Assembly (NCBI GenBank): GCA_965226885.1
Contig: CBDDEL010000012.1
Location: 160,001-224,000, forward strand
From: Opitutales bacterium
GTDB taxonomy: Bacteria > Verrucomicrobiota > Verrucomicrobiia > Opitutales > UBA2987
Length of the DNA: 64,000 bases
Direction: 5' to 3'
The first letter of the stretch is position 1. Every line of letters begins with the position of its first letter. Below are positions 18,001-27,000 of the stretch, one piece after another. Position numbers: made by a program.

Positions 18001-21000
18001 ATCGCCAAAAAGGACGTAACGGTATTTTCGATAGAACCCGTCCTCGCTTTGCACGTCGATATACTCAACGGCCACAGGGTGTGAGTAGGCTTGCCAATCT
18101 ACCTGGTGGACATCTTCCTCCTGGCGAATCAGGAAGCAAGACCCCGAATGCACCCGGTCCTCCCGAATAAAGAATGGAGGAATAAGGCCGCCGAAAGAGG
18201 AAAGAAACGCCTTTCGATCTGTGATTCGCACGATTCTGGCGGTTCGGATGCCAAGTTTGCCCATGATGGGAAGAGCGCCCGATTTTATGGAATTCGACAA
18301 CCCCTCCACCGCATGGACAATCGGGATTCCACGCGCGCGGCACTTTCGTTGCATCCTCATGGCGAAATAATAATCCAAAGGATAATTCTCCTTGAGGGGA
18401 TCCTGGAGCCACGGGATAAAGAGAGCGACGCGATCCCAGTCGATTCCCCAGGCAGGCAAACGGCACAACTGCATCCGCGAGGCAATCTCCGGGCGGGAGG
18501 ACCGCACCCATTGCAGGAAATGCTCATTGTAATCGGTGAGACGACTGGGATGCCGAGCGATCAGGATGCGGCGGCTATCATGCTCGCGCAACGAGGCATT
18601 GTGGGGCGCATCCGAACCTTGCGCTTTGCGGTAACACGCGAAGGTTTGGATCGAATGTCGTGTCTTCGGACTTAAAAAGCGCCAGGCCAAACGGAGCCAG
18701 CTTCTGTCTTGTTGTTCCATCGTAATACGTTAATTATTTGTGTCCGCAGAGCGAAAGCTAAAAACAGGCAGGCTGAAGGGGTGGAGCCCTGGTTGCGGCT
18801 CAATTAATGGGTGCCGATGAAGGCGCCGCCGTGCTGGTAGGTGAGTTCCCGCATGAGGTTGGCGTATTTGAGGCCGGTGCGGGTGAAATGCCGCTCGAAT
18901 TTGATGACGTGGGGAAAGCCGATGGCGTTGATCGTGATGGGTCTTTCGCCGGTCTCTTCGTCGGGACTGTTGGCGGTGTCGATACGGTTCAGGACTTTTT
19001 CCGCGGTTTGGGTGAATTCGTCCCCGAAAATGTAGATGCCGATTTTATTTTCCGGCGTTTTATCATCGCGAAAGGTGCGGATGGCCCGGAGGATGCCGGG
19101 AACGGGGTTGCTTTGGCTGTGGTGTTCGTACCTGAGGATGGCTCGATTGATGTGGTCGCGCGCGACCCGGCTGTCAGGTATCCATTGTCCGCGGCTTGAG
19201 CGGAGGATGAAATTGCCGTCGGCGTCCATGGCCTGGATGGCTTTGACAATGGGATAAATTTCCAGGGTTTCCCTGATTTTGGTGGTGACGGATCTCCAGA
19301 TTTGCCCGGTGCTGGGATCGCGCATGCTTCCGGAGGTGTCCAAAATGAAAATGATATGGTTGCTCAAGACGGGCACTCCGATGGGCAGGTCGGACTCGTT
19401 TTGGGGAATGTCCACTATTTTTTCGCGTGCGTCGATTTCCTCTTCCAGGTCGTCCACTTCGGCGATGAGTTTTTCTTTCCCGAAATCAGCCTCCTTGATC
19501 CGGTTGATCAATTCATCAATGTCCGTTTGCAGGGAGGCGATTTTTTCCTCTTTTTCTTTTTCAGTCTGTTCGTTTTGCTTAAGAATATCTTTGAGCTGCT
19601 GTTTTTTTGATTGGATGCTCTGCAGTTCCGTCATGCGCTCCTGAAAGAGTTTTTCCAGGGTGTCGCGGATATCGAAAATAACCAGCCTCTCCGAGCCCAG
19701 GGAGATGACGAACAATAGTATGACGGCCCCGAAACCGCAATTGATGACATCGAGGAATGAGAGGCTGAAGACGGAGAGATCGCGTTGTTTCTTTTTGCTC
19801 ATGTCTCGGGCCAGTTTTTGGAGGGGCAAATAAAGGAGCCTTCGGTTTTCGTCGCCAGAAGCCAATAGCTGGTGGCGGCGGCGGGGTCACCGCTTAATGG
19901 CAGCATGATTGTGTTGATGGGAATGCCCAGGGGGGCCTGGCGCAAGGCGGCGTTGTACATGCGCACTCTGGACTGCTGGTCGATGATGGGCCCGGCCGGC
20001 ACCGAATCGCTCAAGGTGGGCAGGCCGTCCACAAAGAGGATGAGGTTGTCCGGCTTGGGGTTCATGCCGCCGACATGGAAAAAAGCCCGTTCCAGGTTGG
20101 CTCCGCCCCGGGGGACGACTTCCTTCATTTTCCCCAGCGCTTCGGCCATGGTTTGCCGGTCCGAGATTTCCAGCCACTCACCCGCCCTGAGCGGAATGAC
20201 AGACTCAACTTCTTTGCTGAAGAATAGTATCTGGTAGGTGGTGGGCGGTTTGAGGGCGGTCAGCATCCATTCCAGGGCCCGCATGGTCTGCTTCCATTTG
20301 GGGGCCGCTCGTTTATCATCCTCGTTGCCGGCGAGCCGTTCGATGGCCCCGTCGATAGTGTCGTCGAGCATACCGCCGGAAGCTTCCACCAGAAAGAGGA
20401 CCCGTTCGCCATCGAGCTTGAAATCGGTCAGGTATTGGCGGCGGGTGGGGTTGGGCATGGGAATGGGCACTTCTTCGGGGACGGTGGGCAGGTGTTCCAA
20501 ATCACCCAGGAGGATCTCCCGCAGCTCCTCCATTTCGGAAAGTTGAGAGAGCATGAGGCTCAGGTCCGTCGTCCTGTCGGTCAAAGTGGTGGAAAAATCA
20601 ATCTCCTTGAACTTCAACTCCTGTAATCGTTTTTTGATCTCCTCAATGGAGCTGGCTAACTGCATAAGGAGCTTTTCCTCCCCCTGGATGTCCCTGCGCA
20701 ATCGACCCAGATCTATTTCCGTGTCGGAGAGTTGGTTAACCGTATCCGCCGACTTTTTTCCGCTGGTCAGGACGAAGAGCAGAATAATGGCTCCAAACCC
20801 ACAACAGATGACATCGAGAAAGGCCATGCTGAGGGGCTGGAGCGCTTTTTTCTTCCGGGCCATGGTGGATGGGGTGTTTTGGCCGTAAAATTAAGTCAGA
20901 TTAGCCGGCACAATGAATAAGAAGCCATTGGGCCGTCGAAGTTCCATCCTCAAGGCCGAGGGCGAGGGTGAGAAGGTCGCCCGGTTTGAGAAATTCCCCG

Positions 21001-24000: not shown

Positions 24001-27000
24001 AGCAGGAAATCGCCAAAATGCGCGAAATGGCCGCTCGCGAGGCCGCCACCCGCGAGGAGGAGCTGGCAATCGCCGAGGGTATGCGTATTACCGAGCGCGA
24101 ATTGATCGAGGCGGAGGATAAAGCCAAAGTGGCCGAAGCGCGCCTGAAAAAACTGCAAGCGGAACTGGCGACGGCCAAAAACAAGTCAACCTCCTTGCAG
24201 GACGCGGAGAAACGCATGTCCGAGGCCGAAGATAAAATACGCGAGCTGGAAGAAAAACTGAAAGAACTTAAAGGAGATGAGTGAAGTCCGCCCACCCATT
24301 CAATCCCATTAAATCTCATTTAATTTATTTGTCCTAATCGTATCATAAAACTCTCAATCAGGAGGTCGCCATGAATGGCATCCAGAAAATCCATCGCATA
24401 ATATTCATCTTTATTTCTGCCTTTTTTCTTGGTGGGTGCGCCTCGACCTATTCTTTTAAAGTGGATGCCATTAATAACCCGGAGGCCACCGAGTACCAAT
24501 CCTACAAAATTGTCAGTTCAAACCCGGAGGTGAGCGAGGAGGACTTGCAATTCAAGGAAGTGGCCGAATACGTCAAAACCTCCCTTTCCGGCAAAGGCCT
24601 CTACGAAGCGCCGGATATTGAAAGCGCTGACGCTGACATGATTGTGGATATTTCCTATGGCATCAGCGAACCGCAGGTCGATTTCAAAACCTACACGACG
24701 CCGGTTTATGCCATGGTCGGGGGCGGTTATCGAACCGTATCGACCCCCGTTGTCGGTCCGAATGGAAAGGTGCGCATGGTCACCACTACCATTTACATCC
24801 CACCCCGCAAACAAATTGTCGGGATGGAAGAGCAGATCGTCCCCATTACCAACTATGAGAAATTTCTCCGCATGACCTCTCGTGAAAACCAGGATGCCGA
24901 CGAAAGCGAGGGCCCCGTGCAGGTTTGGAGCATTTATGTAAAAAACAAGGATGAAAGTGAAGATCTTCGAAAATACCTCCCGCTGATGGCGGCTGCGTCC
25001 GTTGATTACGTGGGGGAAAATACGGAACAGCAGCAAGAGGTAAAAATCAAGGATACCGACGAATCGGTTGCCTTCATCAAGGAGGGCATGTAATACAAGA
25101 TCGGTTGCTGCCAGCCGGCGCCGGCGCTGGCGGATAGTAAGAATATTGAGGTTAAGGCAATTTAAATGAACCACAGGAGGCTGGCCATGAAACAGGACAT
25201 TGGAGCGTGTTGGATAAAGATTTCCCTGTTTTTTGCGCTTGTCTTGCAGGGCGGATGCGAAACCACTTCCCACACTTTCAAGGTTAATGCCATGAAAAAC
25301 CCGGAGGTGGAGGAAGGCAGGTCGTATCGGATTGTCAGCTCGCATACTAACACGGTCGATGAAACGGATCCTCAATTCCATGAAGTCTCCGAATATGTAA
25401 AAACCGCATTATCCGGAAAAGGCTATTACGAGGCTCCCAATGCCGAGAACGCCGACCTGATCATCAATATCGCCTATGGCACGGCCCCCCCCAATATTTC
25501 TTTCAAGACGGTTAATAACCCGGCGGCTCCCGGTTCCATCCACAACCCTATTGGCAGCAGCACCTATCCCGGCTCCCGCTATCCCAGGAGGGGTTATTCG
25601 CGCGGGGGCATTCCCCCTATAGCCGGGCCGATCGGCCAGCCTGTGCAAGCTCCTCAAAACGAAGTCGTTCCGATTACCACCTACGAGAAGTATTTGCAAA
25701 TTACGGCCATCGACAACCGCACGGGCAAAAGCCTTGAAGACTCTCCCCATGCCTGGCAGGTGACCGTAAAAAACAGGGACGAAAGCGATGACATCGATAA
25801 ATATTTGCCCCTCATGGCGGCGGCTTCCATCACTTACGTCGGCCAGAGTACGGAAAGCCAGGAAGTTATCACCCTGAAAGAGTCGGACAGGGATGTTGCC
25901 TTCGTCAAAGCGAACAGTGCAGAAATGGTCAGGGAGCAAAAAGTCTCCAAGTTTCAGTGATTTCCCGTCTCACCGGAGGGGAAACTGGTTGAGGGTGCTG
26001 CAAAATATTTTAAGTTCTGCCAATGGATTTTTGCAAATGGATTTACAGGAGCGGCTGCCTGGGGTATTCATTTTTCAATGAATATTTATACTCCTGAAAA
26101 TAGCCGGATTGTCCTCGAAACTGCCACTCGCGAGGTTATCGCGGAATTGGTGGGAGCTGGAATCGAGGGCACAACCGTCAACTACAGCATTGCCCATGTG
26201 AAAGTCCTGCCGGGCGGCTTGACACCGAAACACTTTCATCCCGATGTCGTCGAGACCTATTGCATCATCAATGGGCGCGGCCTCATGACACTGGACGGCG
26301 AAGAGGCGCAAGTGGGCCCCGGAGAGGTCATCCACATCAACCCGCCCAGCCACCACAAAATGGTCAACGCCTTCGAGGAAGACCTTGAAATGATCGTTGT
26401 GTGCGCCCCTTCCTGGACGCCGGATTGCACGGTTTGGCTGGAACAATGGCAGGACGGGCGTCTCGTTTCCCTGGAAACTTGAGATAGGTTCTACTGCTTG
26501 AGAAGCTGCCGGTGGATGAGATTTTCGATATCGTTGACGACCGTGATGAAGTGATCGGGCAGAGACCGCGCAGCGAAGTCCACCGTTTGGGACTCCGGCA
26601 CCGGGCCGTTCATATTTTGGTCTGCAACCGGCAGGGAGAGGTTTTTTTGCAAAAACGATCCATGAGCAAAGACACCCATCCCGGCACTTGGGATTCATCC
26701 GCGGCCGGTCATCTCGAAGCCGGGGAAGGTTATGATGAAGCAGCCGCCAGAGAATTGCAGGAAGAACTCGGCCTGTCACCCGGCGGTCTGCTGCAATACC
26801 TATTCAAGCTCGACGCAAGTCCCGCCACGGATGAGGAATTCTTGCAGGTTTACCGCATTGAAAATGAAGGACCCTTTACCCTGCAGGCCTCGGAAATAGT
26901 ATGTGGAGATTGGTTTTCTGCTGACAAAATCACGCAATGGATTGCGGAAAGGCCCGGCGATTTTCCCCGGGCCTTCATTCTCGTATGGAAAATTTATAAC

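Follow-up and report, generated by a model that had tools for sequence, protein, structure and literature searches.

An Hsp70-like protein as a probable optional cytoplasmic partner of a TolQ–vWA envelope motor in an Opitutales bacterium

Putative force transducers that combine TolQ with TPH-vWA proteins have been described in Proteobacteria and Verrucomicrobia (Mol Biol Evol 2025, PMC12204202). As far as the main text of that paper describes them, these systems share with the locus analysed here a TolQ-like gene without tolR/exbD and paired, unlike genes for TM-tethered vWA proteins with an Asp helix. The words 'Hsp70' and 'DnaK' are absent from the same main text and its sole 'FHA' match is FhaC, so the gene lying between tolQ and vWA1 is undescribed in that text. 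We studied such a gene in a window of 64,000 nucleotides, the whole stretch of DNA analysed, in which positions count from the first letter. Our results suggest that its Hsp70-like product probably serves the TolQ–vWA envelope motor as an optional partner in the cytoplasm and is not a fixed part of it.

Organization of the cluster and its membrane proteins

On the minus strand, genes for a TolQ-like protein, an orphan protein and a pair of TM(Asp)-coiled-coil-vWA paralogues follow one another with the order and positions that the initial annotation had reported, and three lipoprotein genes lie divergently upstream (Table 1). Stops and starts within the cluster are close or overlapping, which fits co-translated partners. 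The TolQ-like start was set at the ATG at 23269, which gives 287 aa (283–289 aa in relatives); the longest ORF reaches a TTG at 23284. The vWA2 start was set at the ATG at 19802, which overlaps the vWA1 stop as ATGA; vWA2 homologues, at ~330 aa, span 94% of the longer ORF. Minus-strand consensus hexamer matches at 23440-23411 and 23405-23378 face the TolQ-like gene and are promoter-like, which is not proof of function.

Table 1. Features of the cluster and its divergent neighbours, with ORF limits from the ORF listing
Feature	Position	Strand	ORF	Basis
TolQ/ExbB/MotA-family channel protein	22406..23269	-	22406-23284	PF01618 55.8 bits; AF2; start from relatives
TolQ-like cytoplasmic-loop motif G114-E-R-I-I-P119	22913..22930	-		translates to GERIIP
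Hsp70-type NBD fold (predicted), residues 1-365 of 496-aa protein	21297..22391	-	20901-22391	AF2, Foldseek, VIA
Low-confidence linker, residues 366-404	21180..21296	-	20901-22391	pLDDT <50 at residues 374-401
Degenerate FHA-like beta domain, residues 405-496 + stop	20901..21179	-	20901-22391	translation; C-terminal profile
vWA1, 354 aa	19799..20863	-	19799-20863	motifs; relatives reaching Pfam VWA thresholds; weak PDB vWA profile match
vWA2, 332 aa from ATG at 19802	18804..19802	-	18804-19865	homologue lengths; MIDAS; hhalign with vWA1
AT-rich divergent intergenic region	23270..23714	.		GC 0.467 over 23000-23999; hexamer matches
Glycine-zipper lipoprotein	23715..24284	+	23715-24284	PF13488 26.9 bits; lipobox LSGC
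DUF4136-like lipoprotein	24371..25093	+	24371-25093	PF13590 E 2.5e-6, under curated cut-off; lipobox LGGC
Second DUF4136 lipoprotein paralogue	25166..25960	+	25166-25960	PF13590 34.6 bits, over cut-off; lipobox QGGC

The earlier PF01618 assignment of the TolQ-like protein was recovered. Its AF2 model (pLDDT 86.5) matched E. coli TolQ in TolAQR best in Foldseek (E 1.2e-3, TMt 0.54), and MotAB–FliG entry 8ucs appeared among the weak matches. Hydropathy indicated three strongly hydrophobic segments and a pore-lining helix, and the pore retains its conserved threonines, T201 and T234; the operon contains no tolR/exbD. In vWA1, a short basic tail and an Asp-bearing TM helix (AFLDV) precede a coiled coil and a vWA-like domain whose MIDAS is degenerate (EASGG). 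In vWA2, the TM helix has the Asp as well (SFLDV) and the MIDAS is intact (DTSGS); the protein aligned with vWA1 over the full length by hhalign (99.95%, E 1e-37), making the two full-length paralogues. Pfam VWA_2 matched the window's vWA2 at just E 0.0089 and the vWA1 profile matched a PDB vWA domain weakly (5a8j, 0.0047), and relatives of vWA1 reach Pfam VWA thresholds (locus L165, VWA_3 38.1 bits; L156, VWA_2 36.4 bits). An Asp helix in both vWA proteins and a MIDAS mainly in the second had been claimed, and this pattern extends over 120 complete clusters: the TM-Asp motif was found in 120/120 vWA1 and 119/120 vWA2, and DxSxS in 16/120 and 120/120, respectively.

A diverged Hsp70-type protein with an FHA-like domain

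Even with the threshold relaxed to E<=0.1, the orphan protein, which is 496 aa long here, gave no match to a Pfam, NCBIfam or PADLOC family, in agreement with the absence of Pfam and NCBIfam families noted before. Neither hydrophobic segments nor a signal peptide were detected in it. Its AF2 model (pLDDT 82.2, pTM 0.71) matched DnaK in Foldseek at E 3.6e-18, with TMt 0.77 for the DnaK NBD. VIA Z-scores were highest for Ssz1/RAC (33.8 for 5mb9_A and 33.0 for 4gni_B), followed by Hsp110 (31.8) and BiP (31.6), and among other actin folds reached 25.2 for MreB and 18.9-19.0 for PilM. A search of the PDB with a 60-member family profile also led to Hsp70 NBDs (1.7e-11). By predicted structure and family profile, the protein is a diverged Hsp70-type NBD, as had been proposed. 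Thresholds of E<=1e-30, <=1e-10 and <=1e-3 gave 339, 1038 and 1486 family representatives, close to the 358 and 1,071 given earlier for the first two of them.

In the 60-member alignment, the D-L-G-T-T site of DnaK corresponds to E7 (57/60)-x-x-D10 (59/60)-x-G12, its D-x-G-G-G site to D175-x-H177 (42/60)-x-H (50/60), and its G-G-x-T-R-x-P site to S-x-R312 (55/60)...P-G, and the column of K70 holds no conserved Lys. As read from this alignment, the glycine loops with which Hsp70 holds nucleotide and the catalytic lysine are replaced throughout the family. Loss of canonical motifs is no proof against nucleotide binding, which may survive in this protein.

The FHA domain claimed for the C-terminus stands at the family level, and is neither constant across the family nor intact in the window. 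A C-terminal profile built from 24 loci matched the FHA domains of CHFR (1.2e-4), Ki-67 (3.9e-4) and YukB (3.9e-3), and Pfam FHA matched 26/60 family members, the window's own protein not among them. The domain opens with a family-invariant P-T-H407 (H407 in 60/60), and the 'GR' arginine of FHA domains occurs in just 5/60. In eight complete loci the FHA part is missing or unrecognisable, and in the window ~15-17 alignment columns are gone where relatives have a conserved His. The FHA-like domain of the 496-aa protein is probably phosphorylation-independent.

One-way linkage and the TolQ-like loop

The linkage test of the initial annotation ran only from the Hsp-like gene to the cluster; we added the reverse test, which starts from vWA2. 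In the first direction (75 Hsp-anchored loci in all), the claimed arrangement held without exception, with the TolQ-like gene directly upstream in 71/71 testable loci and vWA1 directly downstream in 67/67. Twelve loci in which proteins or neighbours are labelled Gammaproteobacteria or Halioglobus show this order too, with stops and starts that overlap. Only one copy of the Hsp-like family is present in the window's genome, and no member away from a TolQ-like gene was found in the genomes searched. A search for fused TolQ–Hsp or Hsp–vWA proteins found none, which is weak evidence.

In the reverse direction, vWA2 is patchy, being carried by 31/401 genomes of the phylum sample, and the Hsp-like gene is missing in 17 of the 30 other vWA2-bearing verrucomicrobial genomes of that sample. 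All 17 belong to one Opitutales family, f3 (17/17 sampled), and the TolQ-like gene abuts vWA1 in 10/10 fetched Hsp-less loci of this family. Of 63 testable vWA2-anchored metagenome loci, 60 carry the Hsp-like gene and three (L145, L147 and L148) do not. Presence and absence of the gene require at least two changes on the vWA1+vWA2 tree. Linkage is strict one way only, from the Hsp-like gene to the cluster and not the reverse, and the earlier description of a 'fixed' and 'invariant' fourth gene has to be given up in view of these three-gene clusters. Because the gene is absent there, the motor core must work without the Hsp-like protein.

Lipoprotein genes had been described as frequent neighbours, and they are. 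The glycine-zipper gene, whose product in the window has a C-terminal coiled coil, occurs in 64/64 testable Hsp-anchored loci and also in 8/10 fetched Hsp-less f3 loci; DUF4136 occurs in 57/61 testable Hsp-anchored loci and was not detected in the 10 fetched f3 loci or the 12 gammaproteobacteria-like loci. On the vWA tree, rows of each sampled genome family cluster together; this grouping and the stable lipoprotein neighbours are more readily explained by vertical descent than by a mobile defence island.

Three TolQ-like positions vary with the Hsp-like gene. In the tree set, P119 is present in 80/80 clusters with the gene and 0/11 without it, G114 in 78/80 and 1/11, and P277 in 74/80 and 0/11, a correlation that amounts to only two independent contrasts (sign test p 0.5). 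The Hsp-less locus L147 retains G114 and P119. Moreover, f3 forms a long branch on the vWA1+vWA2 tree, and hence its TolQ differences may reflect general divergence. From covariation only, we infer a possible contact and regard the GERIIP loop as a candidate site at which the Hsp70-like protein would dock. The vWA N-terminal tails appear similar in clusters with and without the Hsp-like gene, which points to the TolQ-like protein rather than these tails as the partner.

Proposed role, alternatives and known systems

On balance, we lean towards the 496-aa protein being a soluble cytoplasmic, optional accessory subunit that docks on the TolQ-like pentamer and anchors, gates or regulates the motor. 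It consists of an Hsp70-type NBD fold that lacks the canonical ATP-binding loops, then a linker, then a degenerate FHA-like domain, and shares its operon with the TolQ-like channel and the two TM(Asp)-coiled-coil-vWA proteins. In this model, the vWA pair takes over from TolR/ExbD, forming the proton-binding axle of a putative 5:2 motor, and would span the periplasm to outer-membrane partners. The Hsp-like protein would dock at the cytoplasmic face of the pentamer, on the loop motif G-x-R-I-I-P-E-D-A and possibly also on the C-tail motif M-K-V-P-x-x-E-E. It would then be a real accessory cytoplasmic subunit or regulator, apparently undescribed.

Hsp70 ancestry also suggests an assembly factor active in biogenesis only and absent from the finished machine, which might retain the TolQ-like or vWA proteins until they enter the membrane, or aid pentamer–dimer assembly. 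A shared operon and dispensability in many lineages, as for a helper, agree with this; we still think it unlikely, in view of the lack of a substrate-binding domain and of the family-wide replacement of the ATP loops on which the Hsp70 cycle depends. The strict position and the overlap of stops and starts, which suggest stoichiometric co-production, and the TolQ cytoplasmic motifs that follow the presence of the gene also count against it. An active enzyme, in which E7, D10, D149, D175, H177/H179 and R312 would form a non-canonical nucleotide or metal site and the protein would power or modify the motor as an ATPase, kinase or phosphatase, is very unlikely in our estimate. The acidic/His cluster is kept in 37-59 of 60 members and maps to the Hsp70 catalytic cleft, and Ssz1, the top structural match, still binds ATP; however, none of the three glycine-rich loops is left, the catalytic Lys is missing too, the window's copy has R at the column of the second His, and no conserved kinase or phosphatase partner gene lies nearby.

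Signalling or defence output as in Zorya, in which TolQ–vWA would sense envelope perturbation and the Hsp70-like/FHA protein would pass the signal on to a cytoplasmic response, appears quite unlikely. Weak PADLOC ZorA matches of the TolQ-like protein (E 1.5e-4), the patchiness of the module, the signalling nature of FHA domains and PEGA/FGE-sulfatase-domain neighbours in proteobacteria-like loci speak for it; the text of PMC7159879 places the FGS domain among conflict-system domains. Against it, none of the other three proteins matches a PADLOC model, the conserved core contains no effector gene (nuclease, protease or toxin), descent looks vertical and no plasmid copies were found. Finally, that the gene is a passenger kept by chance or shared regulation only, with no functional tie, is hardly credible: clusters function without it in many lineages, but its position is identical in every testable locus, including those labelled as a second phylum, and in the genomes searched the family stays beside TolQ-like genes.

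With the Hsp70/DnaK NBD, and in particular with Ssz1, an atypical Hsp70 in the ribosome-associated complex, the protein shares a two-lobed fold and a collinear alignment, but identity is only ~12-16%, K70 and the phosphate-1, phosphate-2 and adenosine glycine motifs have given way to other residues, an FHA-like domain takes the place of the substrate-binding domain, and Pfam HSP70 does not match. In the flagellar stator, the pentameric channel protein MotA has, in a loop on the cytoplasmic side, the motif that contacts the soluble partner FliG. The proposed TolQ-like docking loop lies at a comparable position, although the Hsp-like protein is unrelated to FliG and no rotor ring is known. In PilM–PilN and GspL, an actin-superfamily fold provides the cytoplasmic scaffold for bitopic inner-membrane proteins with coiled-coil periplasmic parts; the structural match of PilM is far weaker than that of Hsp70, and the cytoplasmic tails of the vWA proteins (only ~10-15 residues) show no difference with or without the Hsp-like gene. 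Zorya ZorAB, a 5:2 motor in anti-phage defence, also joins a MotA/ExbB-family pentamer to non-canonical partners, whereas the PADLOC models left unmatched by the Hsp-like and vWA proteins include ZorB, ZorC and ZorD.

The Agl-Glt machine of Myxococcus, as presented in the text of PMC11761067, also includes a vWA-domain protein, CglB, which acts at the outer membrane. Here the putative axle is a vWA pair, and no Glt homologues were noted. In that account, which offers a precedent for our reading, the machine with its AglRQS motor couples to actin-like MreB, and prediction puts an FHA domain of GltG in contact with the pentamer of TolQ-like AglR. Both systems would combine a TolQ/ExbB-type motor with a cytoplasmic face proposed to bind an FHA domain and to engage an actin fold, which in Agl-Glt sit on TonB-like GltG and on MreB, and here are united in one soluble protein.

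Gene layout and the TolQ-vWA core

Our analysis shows that a single minus-strand operon unites an Hsp70-fold protein without the Hsp70 motifs (the Hsp-like protein), a TolQ-like protein without TolR, and two vWA proteins with an Asp-bearing transmembrane (TM) helix, vWA1 and vWA2. More generally, most clusters of TolQ and a vWA pair appear to carry such a fourth, cytoplasmic protein, in which an Hsp70 fold has been stripped of its ATP-binding motifs. The ORFs are tightly packed, with the stop of vWA1 and the start of vWA2 overlapping in ATGA and the remaining intergenic gaps measuring 14 and 37 nt. 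Two listed ORFs were shortened to internal starts, the TolQ-like gene because its relatives measure 283–289 aa, and vWA2 because its listed ORF is covered to 94% by homologues with a length of about 330 aa. An AT-rich spacer of 445 bp separates the operon from three divergent lipoprotein genes.

Further out, the flanks look unrelated: past vWA2 come a methyltransferase-domain protein, a DDE transposase and ilv genes, while the lipoprotein genes are followed by an orphan ORF, a phosphorylase-family protein and an adenine-deaminase-like protein. The methyltransferase-domain protein is encoded on the same strand, directly 3′ of vWA2; no family matches its N-terminal ~400 residues, and related loci did not show it as a conserved neighbour. 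The transposase ORF (PF13701, E 1.2e-164), about 2 kb past the 3′ end of the operon, shows that an insertion sequence separates the methyltransferase gene from the ilv genes.

Features of the operon and its surroundings in the window
Feature	Position	Strand	Remarks
DDE transposase ORF, 456 aa	15301-16671	-	PF13701
Methyltransferase-domain protein, 631 aa	16825-18720	-	C-terminal class-I methyltransferase domain
vWA2	18804-19865 as listed ORF	-	start taken as ATG 19802, giving 332 aa
vWA1, 354 aa	19799-20863	-	ORF call
Hsp-like gene, 496 aa	20901-22391	-	ORF call
TolQ-like gene	22406-23284 as listed ORF	-	start taken as ATG 23269, giving 287 aa
Glycine-zipper lipoprotein gene	23715-24284	divergent from operon	lipobox
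DUF4136 paralogue lipoprotein gene	24371-25093	divergent from operon	lipobox
DUF4136 paralogue lipoprotein gene	25166-25960	divergent from operon	lipobox
ORF, 234 aa	26075-26779	-	adjoins DUF4136 genes; no Pfam/NCBIfam match

The TolQ-like protein matches the MotA/TolQ/ExbB family PF01618 with 55.8 bits (cut-off 22.9) and reaches 30.5 bits against the TolQ equivalog TIGR02796, far below the cut-off of 221. All 28 sequences compared share its pore-lining threonines T201 and T234, which lie in the last two TM helices. The AF2 model (pLDDT 86.5) finds its best fold matches in TolQ chains of E. coli and Acinetobacter (E 1.2e-3, TMt 0.54–0.58). There is no tolR/exbD-like gene in the operon. The two vWA proteins are paralogous over their whole length (hhalign 99.95%, E 1e-37), each with a short basic tail, a single TM helix with Asp, a coiled coil and a vWA-like domain. 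The Asp motif reads AFLDV in vWA1 and SFLDV in vWA2 of the window, and among 120 complete clusters it is present in every vWA1 and in 119 of the vWA2 proteins. The MIDAS motif DxSxS was found in 120/120 vWA2 and in 16/120 vWA1 proteins, all 16 belonging to a proteobacteria-like group. In the window, vWA2 keeps an intact MIDAS (DTSGS) and matches Pfam VWA_2 at E 0.0089, under the cut-off; vWA1 has a degenerate EASGG and no Pfam vWA match (PF00092/PF13519), while its relatives exceed the Pfam cut-offs. A vWA2 profile had no match in the PDB at E ≤ 0.01.

The arrangement corresponds to the TolQ + TPH-vWA pairs set out in the text of PMC12204202, with which it shares a TolQ-like gene without tolR/exbD beside an unlike vWA pair. 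The definition given there also includes an N-terminal TM helix with a conserved Asp, and both vWA proteins have it. A 5:2 complex whose pentamer encloses the Asp helices belongs to the proposed motor as well; built from the proteins of this operon, it would comprise about 2100 residues. Such clusters were put forward only in 2025, in the text of the same paper, as proton-driven force transducers of a new kind, with Idiomarina loihiensis as the anchor (PMC12204202). We found no experiments on them in the literature, and the motor that hosts the Hsp-like gene is known but still hypothetical. Full-text literature searches returned no description of an Hsp70-like/FHA protein in tolQ-vWA clusters. 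The words 'Hsp70' and 'DnaK' do not occur in the text of PMC12204202, the figures or supplement of which may already show the gene. In the text of a conflict-system survey, Hsp70 appears only in GTPase-centred systems, and 'TolQ' and 'ExbB' are absent (PMC7159879).

Fold and conserved residues of the Hsp-like protein

Searches of Pfam, NCBIfam and PADLOC with the Hsp-like protein gave no family at E ≤ 0.1. The protein has neither a hydrophobic segment nor a signal peptide, so it is taken to be cytoplasmic by default. It is encoded by a single-copy gene in this genome, and its family comprises 339, 1038 and 1486 representatives at E ≤ 1e-30, 1e-10 and 1e-3, respectively. The AF2 model, built on an alignment of 15 homologues (pLDDT 82.2, pTM 0.71), consists of a folded block (1–365), a disordered linker (pLDDT <50 at 374–401) and a beta domain (405–496).

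The model predicts a two-lobed actin-like nucleotide-binding-domain (NBD) fold of Hsp70 type. Hsp70-family entries fill all of the roughly 40 rows listed by Foldseek against the PDB; DnaK reaches E 3.6e-18, and the DnaK NBD superposes with TMt 0.77 (rmsd 3.7 over 367 columns). VIA-align, run on 48,161 representative chains, gave Z scores of 33.8 and 33.0 for Ssz1/RAC, 31.8 for Hsp110, 31.6 for BiP and 31.2 for Ssb1; after a gap followed MreB (25.2), actin (23.6), FtsA (19.7) and PilM (19.0). At the profile level, 60 family members were needed to match Hsp70 NBDs in the PDB at 1.7e-11; 15 members gave a marginal E of 0.03, and the single 496-aa sequence found nothing meaningful (best E 0.67). 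The hhalign alignment with DnaK of the same genome is collinear (5–336 against 3–379; 53% probability, E 1.4e-4). The Hsp70-NBD fold proposed in the initial annotation is confirmed and now has structural backing from the AF2 model, from Foldseek and from VIA Z values of 31–34 against 25 for MreB. The Hsp70 family PF00012 itself is matched by one of the 60 members (E 6.7e-4) and not by the window protein at E ≤ 0.1, and Pfam had no match in eight short or distant family members scanned.

Hsp70 proteins carry the phosphate-1 motif D-x-G-T-T, the phosphate-2 motif D-x-G-G-G-T, the adenosine motif G-G-x-x-R-x-P and the catalytic K70. We read the corresponding positions from the DnaK alignment and from column counts over the 60 members. 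Phosphate-1, D-L-G-T-T in DnaK, is replaced by E7 (57/60)-x-[NSC]-D10 (59/60)-x-G12. Phosphate-2, D-L-G-G-G-T, is replaced by D175 (56/60)-x-H177 (42/60)-x-H (50/60), where the window protein has R at the last position. The adenosine motif G-G-x-T-R-x-P has become S-x-R312 (55/60)-x-x-x-x-P-G, and none of the 60 members shows a conserved Lys at the K70 position. Canonical ATP binding and hydrolysis are therefore unlikely, judging from these replaced loops and the missing Lys. It is conceivable that the conserved Glu, Asp and His residues form a site for another ligand or a metal. Ssz1, the best structural match, is likewise an atypical Hsp70. Such a protein would extend the roles known for the Hsp70 nucleotide-binding fold beyond chaperoning.

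The C-terminal part is FHA-like, and no Hsp70 substrate-binding domain was recognised in it. Pfam FHA (PF00498) is matched in 26 of the 60 members (best E 2.7e-14) and a YscD-type FHA-like model in 22; the window's own protein has no Pfam FHA match. A profile built from the C-terminal 100 residues in 24 loci matches the FHA domains of CHFR (1.2e-4), Ki-67 (3.9e-4) and YukB (3.9e-3). In FHA domains, phosphothreonine is contacted by the Arg of a 'GR' loop and by a Ser/His of the next loop. This Arg is found in just 5 of the 60 members, and the close clade of the window lacks about 15–17 alignment columns in which relatives have a conserved His. Moreover, short forms of 353–437 aa without a recognisable C-terminal domain occur in eight complete loci (L006, L150, L155 and L175–L179), and the conserved neighbourhoods showed no gene for a Ser/Thr kinase or phosphatase. 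Together, the loss of Arg, the missing columns, the short forms and the lack of such neighbours argue against a classical phosphothreonine reader. The sole residue invariant in 60/60 members is H407, in the P-T-H that opens the FHA-like domain (region 21173-21179 of the window); it matches no known FHA feature.

Linkage, absence and history of the Hsp-like gene

Seen from the Hsp-like gene, linkage to the cluster is strict. In a scan of one genome per species (75 loci, all Verrucomicrobiota), all 71 testable loci have the TolQ-like gene directly upstream and all 67 testable for vWA1 have that gene directly downstream, and the gene order of the initial annotation thereby holds. One of the clusters, L054, comes from a Horticoccus record labelled as an isolate, and a vWA2 gene is also found in Opitutales bacterium ASA1. 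The glycine-zipper gene is divergent in 64/64 testable loci and DUF4136 is present in 57/61.

The reverse linkage was surveyed in Verrucomicrobiota genomes and in metagenome loci anchored on vWA2. The metagenome scan, with two peptide patterns, returned 78 loci, of which 63 were testable after setting aside 4 without vWA1 and 11 with vWA1 at a contig edge. The Hsp-like gene is directly upstream of vWA1 in 59 of these and a cut fragment in one more. In the other three (L145, L147 and L148), the TolQ-like gene abuts vWA1 and there is no Hsp-like ORF anywhere in the locus. In an even phylum sample of 401 genomes, 31 had vWA2 at E ≤ 1e-20, the window genome included, and the Hsp-like profile (E ≤ 1e-5) matched 14 of the other 30. 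One match, in a genome of family f3, was rejected as a family member, being a canonical Hsp70 paralogue elsewhere, on another contig (PF00012 5.3e-86). A true Hsp-like gene is present in 13/30 genomes (families f4 5/5, f6 2/2, f36 5/5 and f42 1/1) and absent in 17/30, namely all 17 sampled genomes of f3, which belongs to the same order as the window. Ten of the 17 f3 loci were fetched; they contain no N and have the layout of a glycine-zipper gene (8/10) divergent from TolQ-vWA1-vWA2, with TolQ and vWA1, by called ORF ends, overlapping by 4 nt at one extreme and lying 90 nt apart at the other. Hence, the gene is common but not fixed, and dispensable in some lineages; the fixed, invariant place that the initial annotation gave it is not confirmed. 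Such natural three-gene clusters separate the core parts from the accessory parts.

Several smaller observations accompany these counts. The rejected Hsp70 paralogue is short (502 aa; L181:2459-3967, minus strand) and adjoins a PEGA-domain protein (L181:2-2263, plus strand); PEGA proteins also stand beside proteobacterial TolQ-vWA clusters. The 10 fetched f3 loci also lack a detectable DUF4136 gene, and L147 has DUF4136 without the Hsp-like gene, so that one absence need not accompany the other. The f36 genome G377 is an exception to the four-gene order: TolQ-Hsp-vWA1 and the only vWA2 homologue, the latter behind unrelated ORFs, lie on different contigs (C80, L182; C43, L180). A search of longer proteins (925–2640 aa) with the Hsp-like family alignment revealed no fusions, which is weak evidence, and tblastn for plasmid copies with a Halioglobus-labelled homologue gave none.

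The gene also ranges beyond the close relatives. Twelve vWA2-anchored loci (L150–L161; 31–36% identity to vWA2) preserve the TolQ-Hsp-vWA1-vWA2 order, with stops that overlap starts. By source annotations of identical or clustered proteins, the Hsp-like protein of L150 has an identical copy labelled as a Halioglobus MAG, a neighbour in L156 has a cluster-mate labelled Gammaproteobacteria, and vWA1 of L148, without the Hsp-like gene, is labelled Alphaproteobacteria. Look-alike clusters listed in a protein atlas come from Verrucomicrobiota, Pseudomonadota and Planctomycetota and serve as leads only; one is auto-named 'FHA/Hsp70 protein domain-containing protein'. Glycine-zipper and DUF4136 genes are absent from L150–L161. 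A TPR gene and a PEGA/FGE-sulfatase-domain gene lie upstream in L150, L155, L156 and the f42 locus L177, and the downstream neighbours are two unknown ORFs and an M48 peptidase. These neighbours may be the alternative periplasmic or outer partners of that lineage. In L150, L156, L177 and L148, the PEGA + FGE-sulfatase protein (~700 aa) and the TPR protein stand just upstream of the TolQ-like gene; the unknown ORFs, of ~220 aa, and the peptidase were noted in L155 and L156.

A quick maximum-likelihood tree of vWA1+vWA2 was built from 91 rows, after removal of near-duplicates from the 120 clusters and the window and with L147 left out for its cut vWA2. On this unrooted tree, presence and absence of the Hsp-like gene need at least two changes. 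One joins f3 and L145 (SH-aLRT 95), both long branches whose join is possibly false. The other is L148, within the proteobacteria-like clade (SH-aLRT 100); nested as it is among rows that carry the gene, it speaks for one loss or more.

A candidate docking site and possible roles

We compared TolQ-like proteins of 80 clusters with the Hsp-like gene and 12 without it (nine f3 loci, L145, L147 and L148), keeping residues conserved in ≥85% of the former and ≤25% of the latter. The contrast positions fall in the long loop between hydrophobic helices 2 and 3 and in the C-terminal tail. Both would be cytoplasmic on a MotA-like four-helix reading, given hydropathy and the fact that the last two helices are homologous to TolQ. 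The contrast is clearest at G114-E-R-I-I-P119-E-D-A. In the tree set, P119 is present in 80/80 sequences with the gene and 0/11 without, G114 in 78/80 and 1/11, and P277 of the tail motif M-K-V-P in 74/80 and 0/11. Without the gene, the equivalents of GERIIP are ANNISR in f3, DHHIYI in L145 and EAVVTQ in L148; L147 keeps GELIHP. The cytoplasmic tails of vWA1 and vWA2 are alike with and without the gene. Hence, the motif contrast and the unchanged vWA tails point to the cytoplasmic face of TolQ as the partner of the Hsp-like protein, with weak statistics, since only two of the contrasts are independent (sign test p 0.5) and f3 shows general divergence. Predictions of a 1:1 TolQ-like + Hsp-like complex with alignments gave ipSAE of 0.28, 0.33 and 0.27 around the mark of 0.32. 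A motif that tracks the gene offers a concrete mutation site and a natural plus/minus comparison.

Binding to the N-terminal tails of the vWA proteins in the manner of PilM-PilN was set aside, as these tails have ~10–15 residues and are the same with and without the gene. The TolQ-like proteins of L165–L174 and L145, all without the Hsp-like gene, are longer (299–346 aa), with acidic low-complexity C-terminal tails and an insertion of ~12 residues just before the GERIIP site.

We propose that the Hsp-like protein would be a cytoplasmic accessory subunit on the TolQ-like pentamer, which it could anchor, gate or regulate. The vWA heterodimer, whose MIDAS is intact in one partner in Verrucomicrobiota and in both in the proteobacteria-like group, would cross the periplasm toward lineage-specific outer partners. 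Beside this operon the candidates are the glycine-zipper and DUF4136 lipoproteins; in other loci they are the TPR and PEGA/FGE proteins. Other roles, which we consider less likely, have to be weighed against an accessory subunit. The protein may be an assembly factor, a role for which its Hsp70-type fold and its absence in some lineages can be set beside the altered TolQ loop. It may act as a non-canonical enzyme, for which the conserved Glu, Asp and His stand on one side and the replaced Hsp70 loops on the other. The gene may also be a mere passenger; here its absences are to be weighed with its strict linkage. A Zorya-like signalling output is a further reading, to which the weak ZorA matches of the TolQ-like protein would lend something; however, PADLOC gave nothing for the Hsp-like or vWA proteins.

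The accessory-subunit reading can be carried further, into a version that we consider improbable. Here, an Hsp70-derived pseudo-ATPase would be the cytoplasmic working partner in a two-sided 5:2 machine, engaged by the TolQ loop as FliG is by MotA. Proton-driven rotation would be braced against, or passed to, the actin-fold protein while the vWA axle works on outer-membrane lipoproteins, and lineages losing the gene would have rewired the TolQ loop. If true, it would be the first case in which a protein of Hsp70 fold has become a structural component of an ion-driven motor.

Two known systems are the nearest functional precedents for the pairing of the Hsp-like and TolQ-like proteins. One is the flagellar stator, in which a MotA loop contacts FliG. 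The other is the Agl-Glt machinery, where, according to the text of PMC11761067, the FHA domain of GltG is predicted to touch the AglR pentamer and the machine is coupled to MreB.
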